From Kiritimatiellota bacterium (lineage in GTDB: Bacteria > Verrucomicrobiota > Kiritimatiellia > Kiritimatiellales > Tichowtungiaceae), in the NCBI GenBank assembly GCA_014381785.1, contig JACNKZ010000029.1:55107-87106 (forward strand): 32,000 bases of DNA, read 5' to 3'. The first letter of the stretch is position 1. Each line of letters starts with the position of its first letter. Below the pieces are notes generated by a model. That model saw only the letters and a program-made list of their open reading frames with translations, made no database searches and was not told where the DNA came from. Both the position numbers and the translations under genes were made by a program. This document shows, in pieces, positions 2,894 through 14,686 of the stretch.

Positions 2894-4318
<1,425 letters not shown>

Positions 4319-4352: not shown

Positions 4353-4369
4353 TTTCCAATGTTTGGAAA
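4353..4369. repeat. TTTCCAA-TGT-TTGGAAA palindrome
   Basis: Perfect 7-bp arms with a 3-nt loop, about 35 nt upstream of the malic enzyme start. Identical to the copy at 10576-10592. Confidence 0.7.
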
Positions 4370-6027: not shown

Positions 6028-6098
6028 ACCACGAAACACACAAAAGACACGAAAGGGGAGTCTGTTTTTATTTTCGTGTGGTTCGTGTATTTCGTGGT
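6028..6098. repeat. long imperfect hairpin built from inverted tandem nonamers (CACGAAANN)x3
   Basis: Left arm 6028-6054 is ACCACGAAACACACAAAAGACACGAAA. Right arm 6072-6098 is TTTCGTGTGGTTCGTGTATTTCGTGGT. 23 of 27 positions are complementary and the loop is 17 nt. It lies between the hom stop (6021) and the aspartate kinase start (6114). Confidence 0.75.
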
Positions 6099-6113: not shown

Positions 6114-7466
6114 ATGAAAGTTGTAAAATTCGGCGGGTCATCCGTCGCCAACGCGGAACAGATTTCTAAAATTATCGGGGTGGTTACCGCCGATGCGGAT
6201 CGCCGTATCGTGGTGGTTTCCGCACCGGGCAAGCGCTGCAAGGACGATACCAAGGTGACCGACCTGCTGATCGCGCTGGCCAATACCGTGCTCGCCGGAA
6301 ATGATTTCGAGAAGGAGCTCAACGCGGTGGTCGACCGCTATGCGGAGATCCAGCGCGAGCTCGATCTGCCCGCGGATGTGGTCGCCGTCATTGAAGCGGA
6401 TCTGCGCGGCCGGATTGCCGGGCGCGGCTCGAATAACCTTCAGTTTATGGACGCCATGAAGGCCGCCGGCGAGGATAACAGCGCCAAGCTGATTGCCGAG
6501 GCGTTCACCAAAGCCGGGTTCCCCGCCAAATACGTCAACCCCGGTGAAGTGGGCATGCTGTTGAGCGACGAGTTCGGCAACGCCGAAGTGCTGCCGGAAT
6601 CCTTTGAAAAGCTGGCCTCACTCAAAGACGCCACTGAAATCCTGATTTTCCCCGGATTTTTCGGTGAAACCAAAGGCGGGGAGGTCGCAACCTTTCCGCG
6701 TGGCGGATCCGACATTACCGGCGCAATTCTCGCGGCGGCGGTGAAAGCCGATGTCTACGAAAACTTTACGGATGTTGATTCGGTTTGCGCGATGGATCCG
6801 CGCGTGATCGATAATCCGCCGGCCATCGAAAGCATGACCTACCGCGAAATGCGCGAGTTGTCGTATGCCGGTTTTGGTGTGTTTCATGACGAAGCCATTA
6901 TTCCGGCCGTGCACGCCGAAATTCCAATTTGCATTAAAAACACCAACAATCCGTCGGCTCCCGGCACGATGGTGGTTCCGAGGCGTACGCCGGAGCATGG
7001 CTCTGTGGTCGGTATTTCCAGTGCGGGCGGCTTCTGTTCGATTTACATCGATAAATATATGATGAATCGCGAAATCGGTTTCGGCCGTCGCCTGCTTCAG
7101 ATTTTGGAAGAGGAGGGAATCTCCTTCGAGCATACGCCATCGGGAATTGACAACGTGTCGGTTATTCTGGCCTCGGCCAACATCAGTAATGAAAAAGAAG
7201 CGTTGGTGGTCAACCGCATTAAAGAAGAGCTGAAGCCCGATAACGTGACGGTCGAGCACGGCCTGGCATTGGTGATGGTGGTGGGTGAGGGTATGCACTA
7301 CACCGCCGGCATGGCCGCCAAAGCCACCGGCGCCTTTCGTGAAGCCGGTGTGAACCTGGAAATGATCAATCAGGGCGCATCTGAAATCAGCATGATGTTC
7401 GCTGTGAAAGATGACGACCGCGAAAAAGCGATCCGCGCCCTCGGCGCCGCCTTCTTCGGAATTTAA
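6114..7466 (+). CDS. lysC: aspartate kinase (monofunctional, ~450 aa class with C-terminal ACT domains)
   Basis: The ORF track starts at 6078. ATG 6114 (MKVVKFGGSSVANAEQ...) has GAAGGA 7 nt upstream and gives the canonical KFGGSS N-terminus. Other motifs: VVVSAPGK, GGSDITGA, and a C-terminal ACT region ending REKAIRALGAAFFGI. Confidence 0.9.
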   Translation: MKVVKFGGSSVANAEQISKIIGVVTADADRRIVVVSAPGKRCKDDTKVTDLLIALANTVLAGNDFEKELNAVVDRYAEIQRELDLPADVVAVIEADLRGRIAGRGSNNLQFMDAMKAAGEDNSAKLIAEAFTKAGFPAKYVNPGEVGMLLSDEFGNAEVLPESFEKLASLKDATEILIFPGFFGETKGGEVATFPRGGSDITGAILAAAVKADVYENFTDVDSVCAMDPRVIDNPPAIESMTYREMRELSYAGFGVFHDEAIIPAVHAEIPICIKNTNNPSAPGTMVVPRRTPEHGSVVGISSAGGFCSIYIDKYMMNREIGFGRRLLQILEEEGISFEHTPSGIDNVSVILASANISNEKEALVVNRIKEELKPDNVTVEHGLALVMVVGEGMHYTAGMAAKATGAFREAGVNLEMINQGASEISMMFAVKDDDREKAIRALGAAFFGI

Positions 7467-7485
7467 TTTTCCACACATTGGAAAA
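7467..7485. repeat. TTTTCCA-CACAT-TGGAAAA palindrome (variant of the TTTCCAA/TTGGAAA family)
   Basis: 7-bp arms with a 5-nt loop, immediately after the aspartate kinase stop codon. A half-site, ACATTGGAAAAAC, recurs at 7557-7569. Confidence 0.6.
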
Positions 7486-7487
7486 AC

Positions 7488-7509
7488 AATCGGGTGCAGG
7501 TTTTTCTAA
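7488..7509 (+). repeat. 22-bp direct repeat, left copy
   Basis: AATCGGGTGCAGGTTTTTCTAA, identical to 8136-8157. Confidence 0.85.
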
Positions 7510-7601
7510 ACACCTGTGGTGAGCGTGCCTGTCTTGAGTAGCGCCGAACGGTCGAAACATTGGAAAAACGGCTCTTTCCCAAAAACCGAGTGTGATGGAT
7601 T

Positions 7602-7620
7602 TTTGACCGGATAACAGGAT
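7602..7620 (+). repeat. 19-bp inverted repeat, left arm
   Basis: TTTGACCGGATAACAGGAT. Its perfect reverse complement is at 8076-8094. Weaker complementarity continues for about 10 nt inward. Confidence 0.85.
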
Positions 7621-7634
7621 CATCCGGATCAGGG

Positions 7635-8024
7635 CTAATCTTGTTGATCAAGTTTCTTTAAATCTCGCACTTTCCGCTTCACCTCCACCTTGGTCGCAGA
7701 AAAATTAAGAATTAACCCTATCTCTTTATGAGTTGCGGCTAGGTAATTCACTACTTGAATCTCGTGGGCGCGAACAATTCGTGTAACCGATTTCAGTTCG
7801 AGAATAATAATTCCTTCTACAAGAATATCTGCAAAAAACTCTCCAACGATCTCGTCGTTGTATTCAACACGGATCGGCACCTGTGACTCTGCCGCCAGCC
7901 CCGCCTTCTTTAACTCAATCATCAGACACTTCTCATATATAGATTCCAAAAAACCAAAACCCATTTTGTTATATACCTGATATGCGCATCCGATGATTTT
8001 TTCTATCAGTTCTTTATGTTCCAT
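7635..8024 (-). CDS. GxxExxY family protein (PD-(D/E)XK nuclease-like fold)
   Basis: The motif GFGFLESIYEKCL contains GxxExxY. ADILVEGIIILELK provides the D...ExK signature. The ORF track starts at 8036; ATG 8024 (MEHKELIEK...) has GGAGG 5 nt upstream. GC is lower than in neighbouring genes. Confidence 0.85.
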   Translation of the reverse strand: MEHKELIEKIIGCAYQVYNKMGFGFLESIYEKCLMIELKKAGLAAESQVPIRVEYNDEIVGEFFADILVEGIIILELKSVTRIVRAHEIQVVNYLAATHKEIGLILNFSATKVEVKRKVRDLKKLDQQD

Positions 8025-8075
8025 GCGGGCCTCCATTTGGCTGTGATGTTTCTTCTGATTTACTGGATCCTGAAC

Positions 8076-8094
8076 ATCCTGTTATCCGGTCAAA
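8076..8094 (-). repeat. 19-bp inverted repeat, right arm
   Basis: ATCCTGTTATCCGGTCAAA is the reverse complement of 7602-7620. Confidence 0.85.
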
Positions 8095-8135
8095 GTCTAG
8101 CCGCACTCAAGAAAACAGAGAATGACCCGGGAGAT

Positions 8136-8157
8136 AATCGGGTGCAGGTTTTTCTAA
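8136..8157 (+). repeat. 22-bp direct repeat, right copy
   Basis: AATCGGGTGCAGGTTTTTCTAA, identical to 7488-7509. Confidence 0.85.
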
Positions 8158-8248
8158 TCCCGATCATTCGGGACTCAGCTGTAAGCCCGACCCTTTCCCT
8201 AGACCCTTGAGACTTCGGGGTGGGCCTGCTTTCAGATTGCTTAAAAAA

Positions 8249-8263
8249 TTCCAGACTTTGGAA
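8249..8263. repeat. weak TTCCA...TGGAA palindrome (degenerate family member)
   Basis: TTCCAGACTTTGGAA, upstream of the thioredoxin-like lipoprotein gene. Confidence 0.35.
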
Positions 8264-8355
8264 CGGTTGTGCTAATCACCCGATCACGCTATCCTTGCGA
8301 CGTGTCAGTGGGGAGAACAGGCTGATTTTTTAACCTAAACAAATAGGAGAGCGGG

Positions 8356-8861: not shown

Positions 8862-8936
8862 GTAGACGAGGCTTCCAGCCTCGTTTCGTTTGGCGGGGCG
8901 CATTGTTTTGCAAACGAGGCAGGATGCCTCGTCTAC
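8862..8936 (+). repeat. ACGAGGC-word element forming two local hairpins or one long-range stem
   Basis: Hairpin 1 pairs ACGAGGC (8866-8872) with GCCTCGT (8878-8884) and is followed by TTCGTTT. Hairpin 2 pairs ACGAGGCA (8914-8921) with TGCCTCGT (8925-8932). Alternatively GTAGACGAGG (8862-8871) pairs with CCTCGTCTAC (8927-8936). Confidence 0.65.
8866..8891 (+). terminator. possible weak intrinsic terminator after the thioredoxin-like gene
   Basis: A 7-bp GC-rich stem with a 5-nt loop, followed by the interrupted T-tract TTCGTTT. It lies 7 nt after the stop at 8859. Confidence 0.35.
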
Positions 8937-10575: not shown

Positions 10576-10592
10576 TTTCCAATGTTTGGAAA
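10576..10592. repeat. TTTCCAA-TGT-TTGGAAA palindrome
   Basis: Identical to 4353-4369. It lies 18 nt after the dsbD stop. Confidence 0.7.
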
Positions 10593-10620
10593 AGTTTAAC
10601 CGCGAATCCACACGAATGGA

Positions 10621-10665
10621 CGCGAAAAAGCTCTTCGCACCCTCGGCGGCGCCTTCTTCGGAATT
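10621..10665 (+). other. 45-nt copy of the aspartate kinase 3' coding end (gene-end relic or repeat element)
   Basis: By hand alignment, 40 of 45 nt are identical to 7419-7463. The translation REKALRTLGGAFFGI compares with REKAIRALGAAFFGI. It is non-coding here, in the convergent spacer. Confidence 0.6.
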
Positions 10666-10713
10666 CAGGGATTCCACGCAGAGCCGCAGAGGTTTTGAAC
10701 CGCGGATGAAGGC

Positions 10714-14588: not shown

Positions 14589-14603
14589 GCGCCTTATCGG
14601 CGC

Positions 14604-14635
14604 GGAGTATTGGAGTGCCGGAGTGATGGAGTGCT
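14604..14635 (+). repeat. tandem octamer array (GGAGTNNN)x4
   Basis: GGAGTATT GGAGTGCC GGAGTGAT GGAGTGCT, starting 16 nt after the cimA stop. The inverse word CAATACTCC at 14667-14675 can pair with GGAGTATTG at 14604-14612. The valS Shine-Dalgarno GGAG (14677-14680) directly follows. Confidence 0.75.
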
Positions 14636-14686
14636 GAGAGCCCAATCATCCAATAATCCTTTAATTCAATACTCCATGGAGAATTT

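Follow-up and report, generated by a model that had tools for sequence, protein, structure and literature searches.

A GxxExxY nuclease gene framed by inverted arrays of short tandem units in a Kiritimatiellota genome: a candidate nuclease-plus-repeat element

Introduction

What kind of element is a small, AT-rich nuclease gene that lies between inverted repeats, with a long direct repeat outside them? The question is raised by the spacer between lysC and trx in a Kiritimatiellota bacterium, on a 32,000-nt stretch of contig JACNKZ010000029.1 (the window, whose coordinates are used throughout), where an initial annotation had described a GxxExxY gene as the core of what looked like a mobile cassette or homing-type insertion, bounded by repeats and spanning 670 bp. 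GxxExxY proteins (PF13366, PDDEXK_3) belong to the PD-(D/E)XK nucleases, and the only survey that we found listing the family gives its function as ‘Unknown’ (PMC3424549). Here we report that the window holds an intact copy of a widespread conserved unit of ~500 bp, consisting of the GxxExxY nuclease gene, its leader and two inverted arrays of short tandem units, and we propose, with slightly more belief than doubt, that this unit is a nuclease-plus-cognate-repeat element. The architecture was not described in the papers that could be searched; coverage was incomplete, and an earlier description is possible.

Results

The conserved unit ends at two inverted arrays

The unit in the window is made up of four features, given here in the order in which they lie on the gene strand:

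8066-8094, minus strand: upstream (5′) array and outer boundary of the conserved unit, reading TTTGAC-CGGAT-AAC-AGGAT-GTTC-AGGAT-C on the gene strand; homology with seven unrelated loci begins here
8025-8065, minus strand: conserved 5′ leader from the array to the start codon, ATCCAGTAAATCA...CATCACAGCC...GGAGG, including the ribosome-binding site
7635-8024, minus strand: intact GxxExxY / PDDEXK_3 nuclease gene encoding 129 aa, assigned from hidden Markov model (HMM) scores, residue conservation, an AlphaFold (AF2) model and the ratio of nonsynonymous to synonymous substitution rates (dN/dS)
7602-7630, minus strand: downstream (3′) array and other boundary of the unit, reverse-complementary to the upstream array and the point where homology with unrelated loci stops

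The initial annotation had placed a perfect 19-bp inverted repeat 14 nt beyond the stop codon and 51 nt beyond the start codon, and both the positions (7602-7620 and 8076-8094) and the distances proved correct. No such repeat was expected by chance in shuffled sequences (0), and it occurred at no further place in the window. At 90% complementarity the repeat is 29 nt long (7602-7630 / 8066-8094) and, real as it is, each of its arms is actually an array of tandem 8–9-mers of a kind that is far commoner without the gene. Three CNGGAT units occupy 8067-8089 in the upstream array, and the downstream array, which begins 4 nt past the stop codon, holds its three units at 7607-7629, giving TTTGAC-NGGAT-AAC-AGGAT-NNNC-NGGAT as the unit consensus of the window arms.

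We compared this arrangement with 80 metagenome loci encoding proteins 48–87% identical to the window protein. Nearly all of them carried an upstream array of two to four tandem 8–9-nt units, typically TTTTGAC-AGGAT-AAC-AGGAT-GGAC-AGGAT, and its reverse complement downstream. The flanking inverted repeat outscored all 100 shuffles in 52 of 63 non-redundant GxxExxY loci; the median arm was 27 nt long, and the median distances were 42 nt from the upstream arm to the start codon and 15 nt from the stop codon to the downstream arm. When the window was aligned with seven unrelated loci, similarity began at TTTTGACNGGAT and ended at ATCCNGTCAAAA, which are exactly the T-run/GAC of the upstream array and the GTC/A-run of the downstream array, and the flanks were unrelated. 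Because similarity is confined between the arrays, the conserved unit is the ~500 bp from ~7600 to 8096, not the 670-bp span bounded by the direct repeats. Two loci from one metagenome (L022 and L023) likewise lie in unrelated contexts and have open reading frames (ORFs) with 92% DNA identity. These comparisons supported the cassette of the initial annotation insofar as an AT-rich, discrete, repeat-bounded unit recurs in unrelated genomic contexts with the same ends, and corrected its size. They also divided the proposed layout of direct repeats outside and inverted repeats inside: the inverted repeat is a conserved boundary in most relatives, and the direct repeat, mostly absent elsewhere, is no family feature.

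Screening the 1.1 Mb of collected loci returned 33 small ORFs with a strong flanking inverted repeat, 29 of which were GxxExxY. The screen also caught an IS200-like Y1 transposase gene (L049, 429-1130; PF01797, 233 aa) with a 38-nt flanking inverted repeat and the look of a REP-associated tyrosine transposase (RAYT; REP, repetitive extragenic palindromic), which served as an unplanned positive control.

Two further loci bear on the range of the architecture. A 136-aa ORF without a Pfam match (L191, 2484-2894), another of the 33 ORFs from the screen, lies between inverted arrays of CACAGAGG units and carries a D...QVK motif reminiscent of PD-(D/E)XK; a single-sequence comparison with GxxExxY by hhalign detected no relationship, and the ORF may represent a second protein family with the same architecture. 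On a plasmid of the cultured organism Fusobacteria bacterium ZRK30 (L224, 1200-1960), an array block of ~46 nt flanks the gene as direct copies, so that the flank arrangement is not uniform across the family.

The gene encodes a predicted PD-(D/E)XK nuclease under purifying selection

The window ORF scored 138.4 bits against PF13366 (PDDEXK_3, cut-off 22) and 138.2 bits against TIGR04256 (GxxExxY, cut-off 35), which upholds the 129-codon gene called earlier; an ATG at 8036 offers an alternative start for a 133-aa product. The name-giving motif reads G24-F-L-E27-S-I-Y30 and the putative active site comprises D66 and E76-L-K78. Across 43 relatives the motif and the putative catalytic residues (E27, D66, E76 and K78) were invariant or nearly so. 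The AF2 model was confident, with a predicted local distance difference test (pLDDT) score of 87, and its nearest folds in the Protein Data Bank (PDB) were Cas4 SSO0001 (E = 7e-5, template modelling (TM) score 0.59), lambda exonuclease and Hjc, followed more weakly by tRNA-splicing endonucleases. The predicted fold suggests a generic PD-(D/E)XK nuclease core. A sequence search for a solved structure gave spurious matches only. No other Pfam domain was found in the 129-aa ORF, which is the sole ORF of the unit, and no recognised transposase (DDE, Y1/HUH, serine or tyrosine) is encoded, the match being to PF13366 and not to PF01797.

Comparison of the window ORF with its nearest relatives gave a dN/dS of 0.04–0.10, with synonymous divergence (dS) of 1.0–1.9 or saturated, and the protein is under strong purifying selection. 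The 5′ leader is conserved among close relatives despite saturated synonymous sites. Since dN/dS is low, dS exceeds 1 and the arrays and leader are still conserved, both the protein and the non-coding ends of the unit are under selection.

The AT-richness of the gene was borne out, GC content being 0.39–0.42 across the gene and ~0.55 in its surroundings (~15 GC points lower). The same held in all 44 loci compared, where ORF GC was below flank GC (mean 0.43 vs 0.54) and correlated with host GC (r = 0.80). The deviant composition that the initial annotation had counted towards a mobile cassette is therefore a property of the family and no sign of recent transfer.

The family is large, with 14,748 clusters at 50% identity (E up to 0.001). 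Several members of 250–270 aa (P0241-P0244, P0246 and others) contain two tandem GxxExxY domains and are either fused duplicates or the result of gene-calling read-through across tandem units. Two further assignments were considered and rejected. An anti-phage defence or phage gene found no backing, as PADLOC returned a weak, partial match only (E = 0.003, 14.5 bits) and the window protein matched neither the PHROGs models nor any of 50,697 phage records searched by tblastn. A plasmid vector was rejected because a match occurred in only 8 of 72,556 plasmid records, mostly replicons of 0.4–1.6 Mb and all typed as non-mobilizable.

Array unit types partly follow the protein lineages

Distant members of the family (48–56% identity) kept the same geometry with other units, namely GCAGAT, ACAGAT, GCTGAT, GCGGAT, ACGGAT, GCAGAC and GGGATA. 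The nearest protein neighbour had the same unit type in 18 of 28 cases, and the mismatches fell mostly among the three similar units GCAGAT, ACAGAT and GCTGAT; unit type appears in part to follow protein relatedness. The two arms of one element were alike at 21.1 of 26 positions, compared with 16.3 for arms of different elements, a value that none of 5000 permutations reached.

Orientation and transcript folding

In 54 of 67 loci the host gene upstream of the unit ran in the direction of GxxExxY, usually ending 30–150 nt before the array, and the downstream gene did so in 46 of 64. The window copy, which is antisense to both neighbours, was the single exception of its kind. A sigma-70-like promoter belonging to the unit was not detected in or near it, and TTGACC/TTGACA at the outer array end was dismissed as a promoter on reading the sequences, being without a −10 partner at usable spacing. 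In the minimum-free-energy fold predicted for the 516-nt transcript, it is the long-range stem of the two arrays that closes the structure (z = −4.4).

These features would suit a device that acts at the RNA level, in which the unit is transcribed by read-through from the upstream gene and the arrays, mattering as a stem, pair over ~27 bp round the ORF, in the manner of phage RNase III sites or of the intervening sequences with ORFs in 23S rRNA, and process, insulate or stabilise the GxxExxY mRNA. Pairing statistics lean the same way, as the formal pair count between the arms was 81.4%, compared with 78.1% in shuffles, and covariation of the arms was 0.128 vs 0.083, with 0 of 500 shuffles as high. 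However, the variable positions were often unpaired (in 4–8 of 16 sequences, both for the N of the CNGGAT units and for the spacer), and the GAC, GGAT and AAC-A-GGAT positions never vary, are conserved as sequence and are therefore silent on pairing; the pair counts thus fit a base-paired stem and a repeated protein-binding motif alike. A stem also leaves the tandem 8–9-nt period of each arm unexplained; a binding motif accounts for this periodicity, seen in every lineage, better than base pairing does. Lone arrays without a partner are common, read-through cannot feed the antisense copy in the window, and no credible match to a known RNA family was obtained in Rfam at E up to 10. We regard such a device as unlikely.

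Three other functions were tried and discarded. A decoy for CsrA was suggested by ACAGGAUG, which resembles a CsrB repeat; against this, other lineages have units without GGA, and the motif would be hidden by the partner arm. DnaA boxes were considered for TTATCCTGT, which matches the consensus at the first six of nine positions only. An integron gene cassette with its single attC did not fit a solitary unit with repeats on both sides of the ORF and no integrase in the window.

Most arrays occur without the gene

We scanned one genome per species for TTGACNGGATAACAGGAT and found the array in at least 120 stretches across many bacterial phyla and archaeal metagenome-assembled genomes (MAGs). 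Around 70 exact matches to TTGACNGGATAACAGGAT would be expected by chance in the whole collection by our own arithmetic, and a few single two-unit matches (e.g. L126 and L159) may therefore be chance. Among the matches listed, to which the counts in this paragraph refer, the hosts included Kiritimatiellia, Verrucomicrobiota, Planctomycetota, Lentisphaerae, Desulfobacterota, Nitrospirota, Nitrospinaceae, Hydrogenedentes, Ignavibacteria, KSB1 and Treponema. A GxxExxY ORF stood beside the array in ~10% of stretches, the rest being short hairpins or lone arrays: 37 of 84 array occurrences had an inverted partner, mostly 0–300 nt away, and formed gene-less hairpins, and 47 of 84 were alone.

Remains of the unit were seen at several loci. 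Lone arrays with remnants of the leader or ORF were found (e.g. L110, L149, L150 and L165), as were frameshifted or truncated gene copies (L036, L056, L057, L110, L197 and L211), and two loci differ at an orthologous site that immediately follows the stop codon of a shared upstream gene, L020 having the full unit and L192 a gene-less hairpin. In L125, gene-less hairpins are nested with other unit types. Tandem amplification was seen in L046 (3385-3791 and 5081-5392), where gene-less hairpins beside a GxxExxY unit are amplified roughly threefold, at periods of 133 and 98 nt. Two contigs of Candidatus Methanoperedens MAGs, which are archaeal (L118 and L119), carry the TTGACNGGATAACAGGAT array as short hairpins, reflecting either inter-domain transfer or mis-binning.

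In the window itself, no fewer than four further intergenic spacers hold gene-less arrays with different unit types:

2854-2889: lone array with the ACTCCA unit (complement of the GGAGTNNN unit)
6028-6098, no strand: gene-less hairpin of CACGAAA-type 8–9-mers in the hom-lysC spacer, with 27-nt arms, 85% complementary, and a 17-nt loop
10598-10712: lone arrays with units CGCGAAT, CGCAGAG and CGCGGAT
14603-14675, no strand: in the leuA-valS spacer, a gene-less inverted pair of GGAGTNNN arrays, with 27-nt arms, 70% complementary

An alternative is that the gene-less hairpins are the primary element and the cleavage target, and that GxxExxY is a free-standing gene of the homing type, which would split and so protect its own palindromic site and spread into empty hairpins by double-strand-break repair. 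PD-(D/E)XK enzymes are commonly dimers on symmetric sites, and I-Ssp6803I is a PD-(D/E)XK homing enzyme. The gene indeed lies centrally between two half-sites, empty hairpins exist, one of them at the orthologous position in L192, and the pseudogenes and remnants fit a cycle of invasion and decay. Yet the L192 hairpin is explained equally well as a deletion derivative, and the leader remnants in some lone arrays point to deletion. Recombinational repair would have to work with homology arms of ~27 nt, which is very short; homing into a symmetric site should show no preferred orientation, yet 54 to 13 was observed; and homing explains neither how hairpins arrive at new loci nor the 22-bp duplication and the 92 and 41 nt of extra flank of the window insert described below. 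This makes homing into palindromes distinctly improbable.

An apparently native 22-mer is duplicated in a hypervariable spacer

Outside the conserved unit, the lysC-trx spacer contains the following features:

7488-7509, plus strand: direct repeat copy 1 (AATCGGGTGCAGGTTTTTCTAA), native sequence adjoining the lysC-proximal palindrome
7510-7601, no strand: segment B, 92 nt from direct-repeat copy 1 to the 3′ array, inside the putative insert and outside the family-conserved unit
8095-8135, no strand: segment C, 41 nt from the 5′ array to direct-repeat copy 2, inside the putative insert and outside the conserved unit
8136-8157, plus strand: direct repeat copy 2, which together with 8125-8135 forms a terminator-like hairpin on the plus strand

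The 22-nt direct repeat reported earlier is present and perfect, with 0 expected in shuffles and no further copies in the window at ≤3 mismatches, and it stands 92 and 41 nt away from the inverted-repeat arms. An additional weak inverted similarity of 12 nt did not stand: it is a perfect 7-mer with scattered matches, of which ~0.2 are expected by chance between the flanks by our estimate, and its second arm begins at 8100, not 8101. Segment B contains a degenerate TTCCA-N5-TGGAA palindrome and a terminator-like hairpin on the minus strand (7569-7588). Segments B and C were rejected as shared element sequence, having no match in 1.09 Mb of related loci.

A related locus (L226) bears on the origin of the 22-mer. 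Upstream of trx it reads TGGAAAAACAACCGGGCGCAGG-CTC-GGCCTGCTTTCGGATTGCTT, where TGGAAAAACAACCGGGCGCAGG matches, at 22 of 24 positions, the sequence on the left of the 22-mer in the window together with nucleotides 1–13 of the 22-mer itself, and this partial 22-mer joins directly to sequence homologous to window position 8219 onward. As L226 keeps one incomplete copy in this context, the 22-mer looks like native target sequence that was duplicated around the insert. On the simplest reading of these alignments, a 626-bp piece (7510-8135, comprising 92 nt, the unit and 41 nt) would have been inserted and the 22-mer duplicated; candidate causes of duplications in the spacer are staggered-break fill-in, circle integration via short homology and templated repair. 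The empty site that the initial annotation had proposed to look for was recovered to this extent, as one partial 22-mer limited to its first 13 nt. Among the nearest LysC relatives (~87–89% aa identity), the search gave no empty site, lysC being followed by leuA or other genes and the spacers being unalignable.

Within the species, the 890-bp lysC-trx spacer was identical in three aligned contigs, and all ten loci found among 22 contigs agreed in their repeats and in the spacing of these (the remaining contigs had been merged with them as similar places), so that an assembly artefact is excluded. Among relatives, this spacer (7467-8355) is hypervariable and constitutes a hot spot. It measures 95 nt in L230, where the LysC C-terminus is ~92% identical, and 116 nt in L227, both unrelated to the window spacer; it holds an 831-aa glycosyltransferase/radical S-adenosylmethionine (SAM) gene in L226 and an extracytoplasmic function (ECF) sigma factor cluster in L228. 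In the more distant L091 and L093, lysC is followed by leuA, without trx-dsbD. At other GxxExxY copies the direct repeat was mostly absent and, where present, differed in sequence, length and geometry (19–161 nt), with host-sequence direct repeats of 41 nt in L011 and 19 nt in L018 and larger local duplications of up to 161 nt.

A second direct repeat, 45 nt long and 89% identical, was observed at a larger scale: the last 45 nt of lysC (7419-7463) recur 3′ of dsbD (10621-10665), in frame and without a stop codon, and bracket a 3.2-kb stretch that contains the GxxExxY unit, trx and dsbD. This arrangement points to an earlier rearrangement, or insertion with duplication, at the 3′ end of lysC, and long duplications therefore belong to the spacer hot spot and not to the GxxExxY unit. 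That the 670-bp span is a classical cut-and-paste cassette, with 19-nt terminal inverted repeats and a regular 22-nt target-site duplication made by the element’s own enzyme, could draw on the perfect and statistically unexpected 22-mer, on its single partial copy in native context and on the host-sequence direct repeats at a few other copies, but is very hard to credit when the direct repeats do not abut the inverted repeats, vary case by case in length, position and sequence and are missing from most copies, when segments B and C are common to no other copy, when 20–40-nt duplications at a fixed distance from the arrays are lacking in the 71 loci examined, and when the older 45-nt repeat makes long duplications a feature of the spacer.

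Other repeats were noted in the same region. The dispersed intergenic palindrome TTCCA-N5-TGGAA (often TTTCCAAnnnTTGGAAA) occurs six times in the window, compared with 0.05 expected, at gene boundaries:

2725-2739, 4115-4129, 4354-4368, 7469-7483, 8249-8263 and 10577-10591: TTCCA-N5-TGGAA palindromes

One of the six abuts direct-repeat copy 1. The palindrome was also found in apparent Kiritimatiellales loci (four times in 130 nt in L128, and in L028, L018 and L228) and may be an operator, a terminator-like element or a member of another repeat family. Between trx and dsbD lies an inverted repeat (8862-8886 / 8912-8936) with 25-nt arms, 92% complementary and 25 nt apart, each of which is apparently a small hairpin on its own.

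Discussion

We propose that the arrays flanking the GxxExxY gene are cis-acting sites to which the nuclease of the enclosed gene most likely binds and which it possibly cuts, and that the gene-less hairpins and lone arrays are decayed or non-autonomous derivatives of the unit. Such a system would work like the REP doublet hairpins (REPINs) and their RAYTs, or as a minimal selfish element, with a PD-(D/E)XK nuclease and octamer arrays in place of a tyrosine transposase and REP palindromes. The copy in the window would have entered the lysC-trx spacer as a 626-bp piece, carrying the unit with 92 and 41 nt of flank and duplicating 22 bp of native sequence. We infer the recognition of the arrays by the encoded protein, the mode in which the unit moves and the level, DNA or RNA, at which it acts from the patterns of conservation and distribution described above.

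Several observations weigh against this proposal. Among 200 collected loci, no dispersed pair exceeded ~92% identity (none >95%), and near-identical dispersed copies were not seen, so that there is no sign of recent transposition or of a multi-copy burst. No regular target-site duplication was found, direct repeats being absent at most copies and irregular elsewhere, and transposase-like catalysis was not found. Presence/absence polymorphism within the species was not found either, the gene being in all ten loci from the 22 contigs. A DNA element that inserts freely would not be expected to share the orientation of its upstream gene, as happens in 54 of 67 loci, and a role at the RNA level fits this bias equally well. 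Proteins that bind cooperatively along one face of duplex DNA would not readily match a period of 8–9 nt. Finally, the flank arrangement varies, with direct arrays in L224 and some copies between two complete hairpins.

A broader version of the nuclease-plus-repeat proposal, which we advance tentatively and hold to be somewhat less probable than not, is that GxxExxY proteins at large are the catalytic partners of an unrecognised class of repeats, the inverted tandem-octamer arrays, dispersed through bacteria and now and then archaea, that their lineages co-evolve with the unit types, and that gene-less arrays, those elsewhere in the window among them, are maintained or moved in trans. The conserved architecture gives a large family of function ‘Unknown’ its first testable lead, in the form of defined, synthesisable substrates. 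It also delineates a class of intergenic repeats across bacteria of the Planctomycetes–Verrucomicrobia–Chlamydiae (PVC) group, Desulfobacterota, Nitrospirota and others that can affect annotation, assembly breaks and intergenic regulation.

Known systems share parts of this architecture. Free-standing homing endonuclease genes such as that of I-Ssp6803I also place a small PD-(D/E)XK nuclease gene in a site found elsewhere without it, and also leave decayed copies, whereas GxxExxY lies outside any intron, intein or conserved host gene and its putative target is a dispersed intergenic palindrome. The ORF-bearing intervening sequences of 23S rRNA (S23p / four-helix-bundle) resemble the unit in having a small ORF of a large multi-copy family within a long-range inverted-repeat stem; unlike them, the GxxExxY unit lies outside rRNA, encodes another protein family and has tandem arrays as arms.

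Insertion sequence (IS) elements and miniature inverted-repeat transposable elements (MITEs), including IS200/IS605, offer a gene-bearing unit with inverted ends and shorter gene-less derivatives that keep those ends, along with pseudogenised copies, AT-rich composition and unrelated contexts. The GxxExxY unit differs from them in that it has no known transposase fold, a regular target-site duplication and near-identical dispersed copies are not seen, its protein is under long-term purifying selection with saturated dS, and its ends are multi-unit arrays. Bacterial interspersed mosaic elements (BIMEs) and the heptamer arrays of cyanobacterial short tandemly repeated repetitive (STRR) sequences are mosaics of repeat types in intergenic DNA composed of short tandem units, BIMEs being built from REP palindromes. 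The nested arrays of several unit types in L125 and at window positions 10598-10712 are similar to these; we know of no protein-coding gene described as associated with STRR sequences.

The closest parallel is with REPIN/RAYT systems (PMC3116915, PMC3337134, PMC5581495). In both, a small nuclease-type gene lies between inverted repeats that are also dispersed without the gene, as hairpin doublets or singlets, the repeat sequence varies with the protein lineage, and the association is persistent with recent bursts not seen; a Y1 transposase with exactly such a layout was caught by our small-ORF screen (L049). The components differ, however. The protein here is PD-(D/E)XK (PF13366) and RAYT is an HUH/Y1 transposase; the arms here are non-palindromic arrays of tandem 8–9-mers, whereas REP is an imperfect palindrome of 20–40 nt carrying a GTAG/CGTC tag; several copies per genome are described for GxxExxY, whereas RAYTs are usually single-copy; and the distribution here covers the PVC phyla, Desulfobacterota, Nitrospirota and archaeal MAGs. 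If the analogy is true, long-lived partnerships between a nuclease and its repeats would have arisen independently a second time with the GxxExxY unit.

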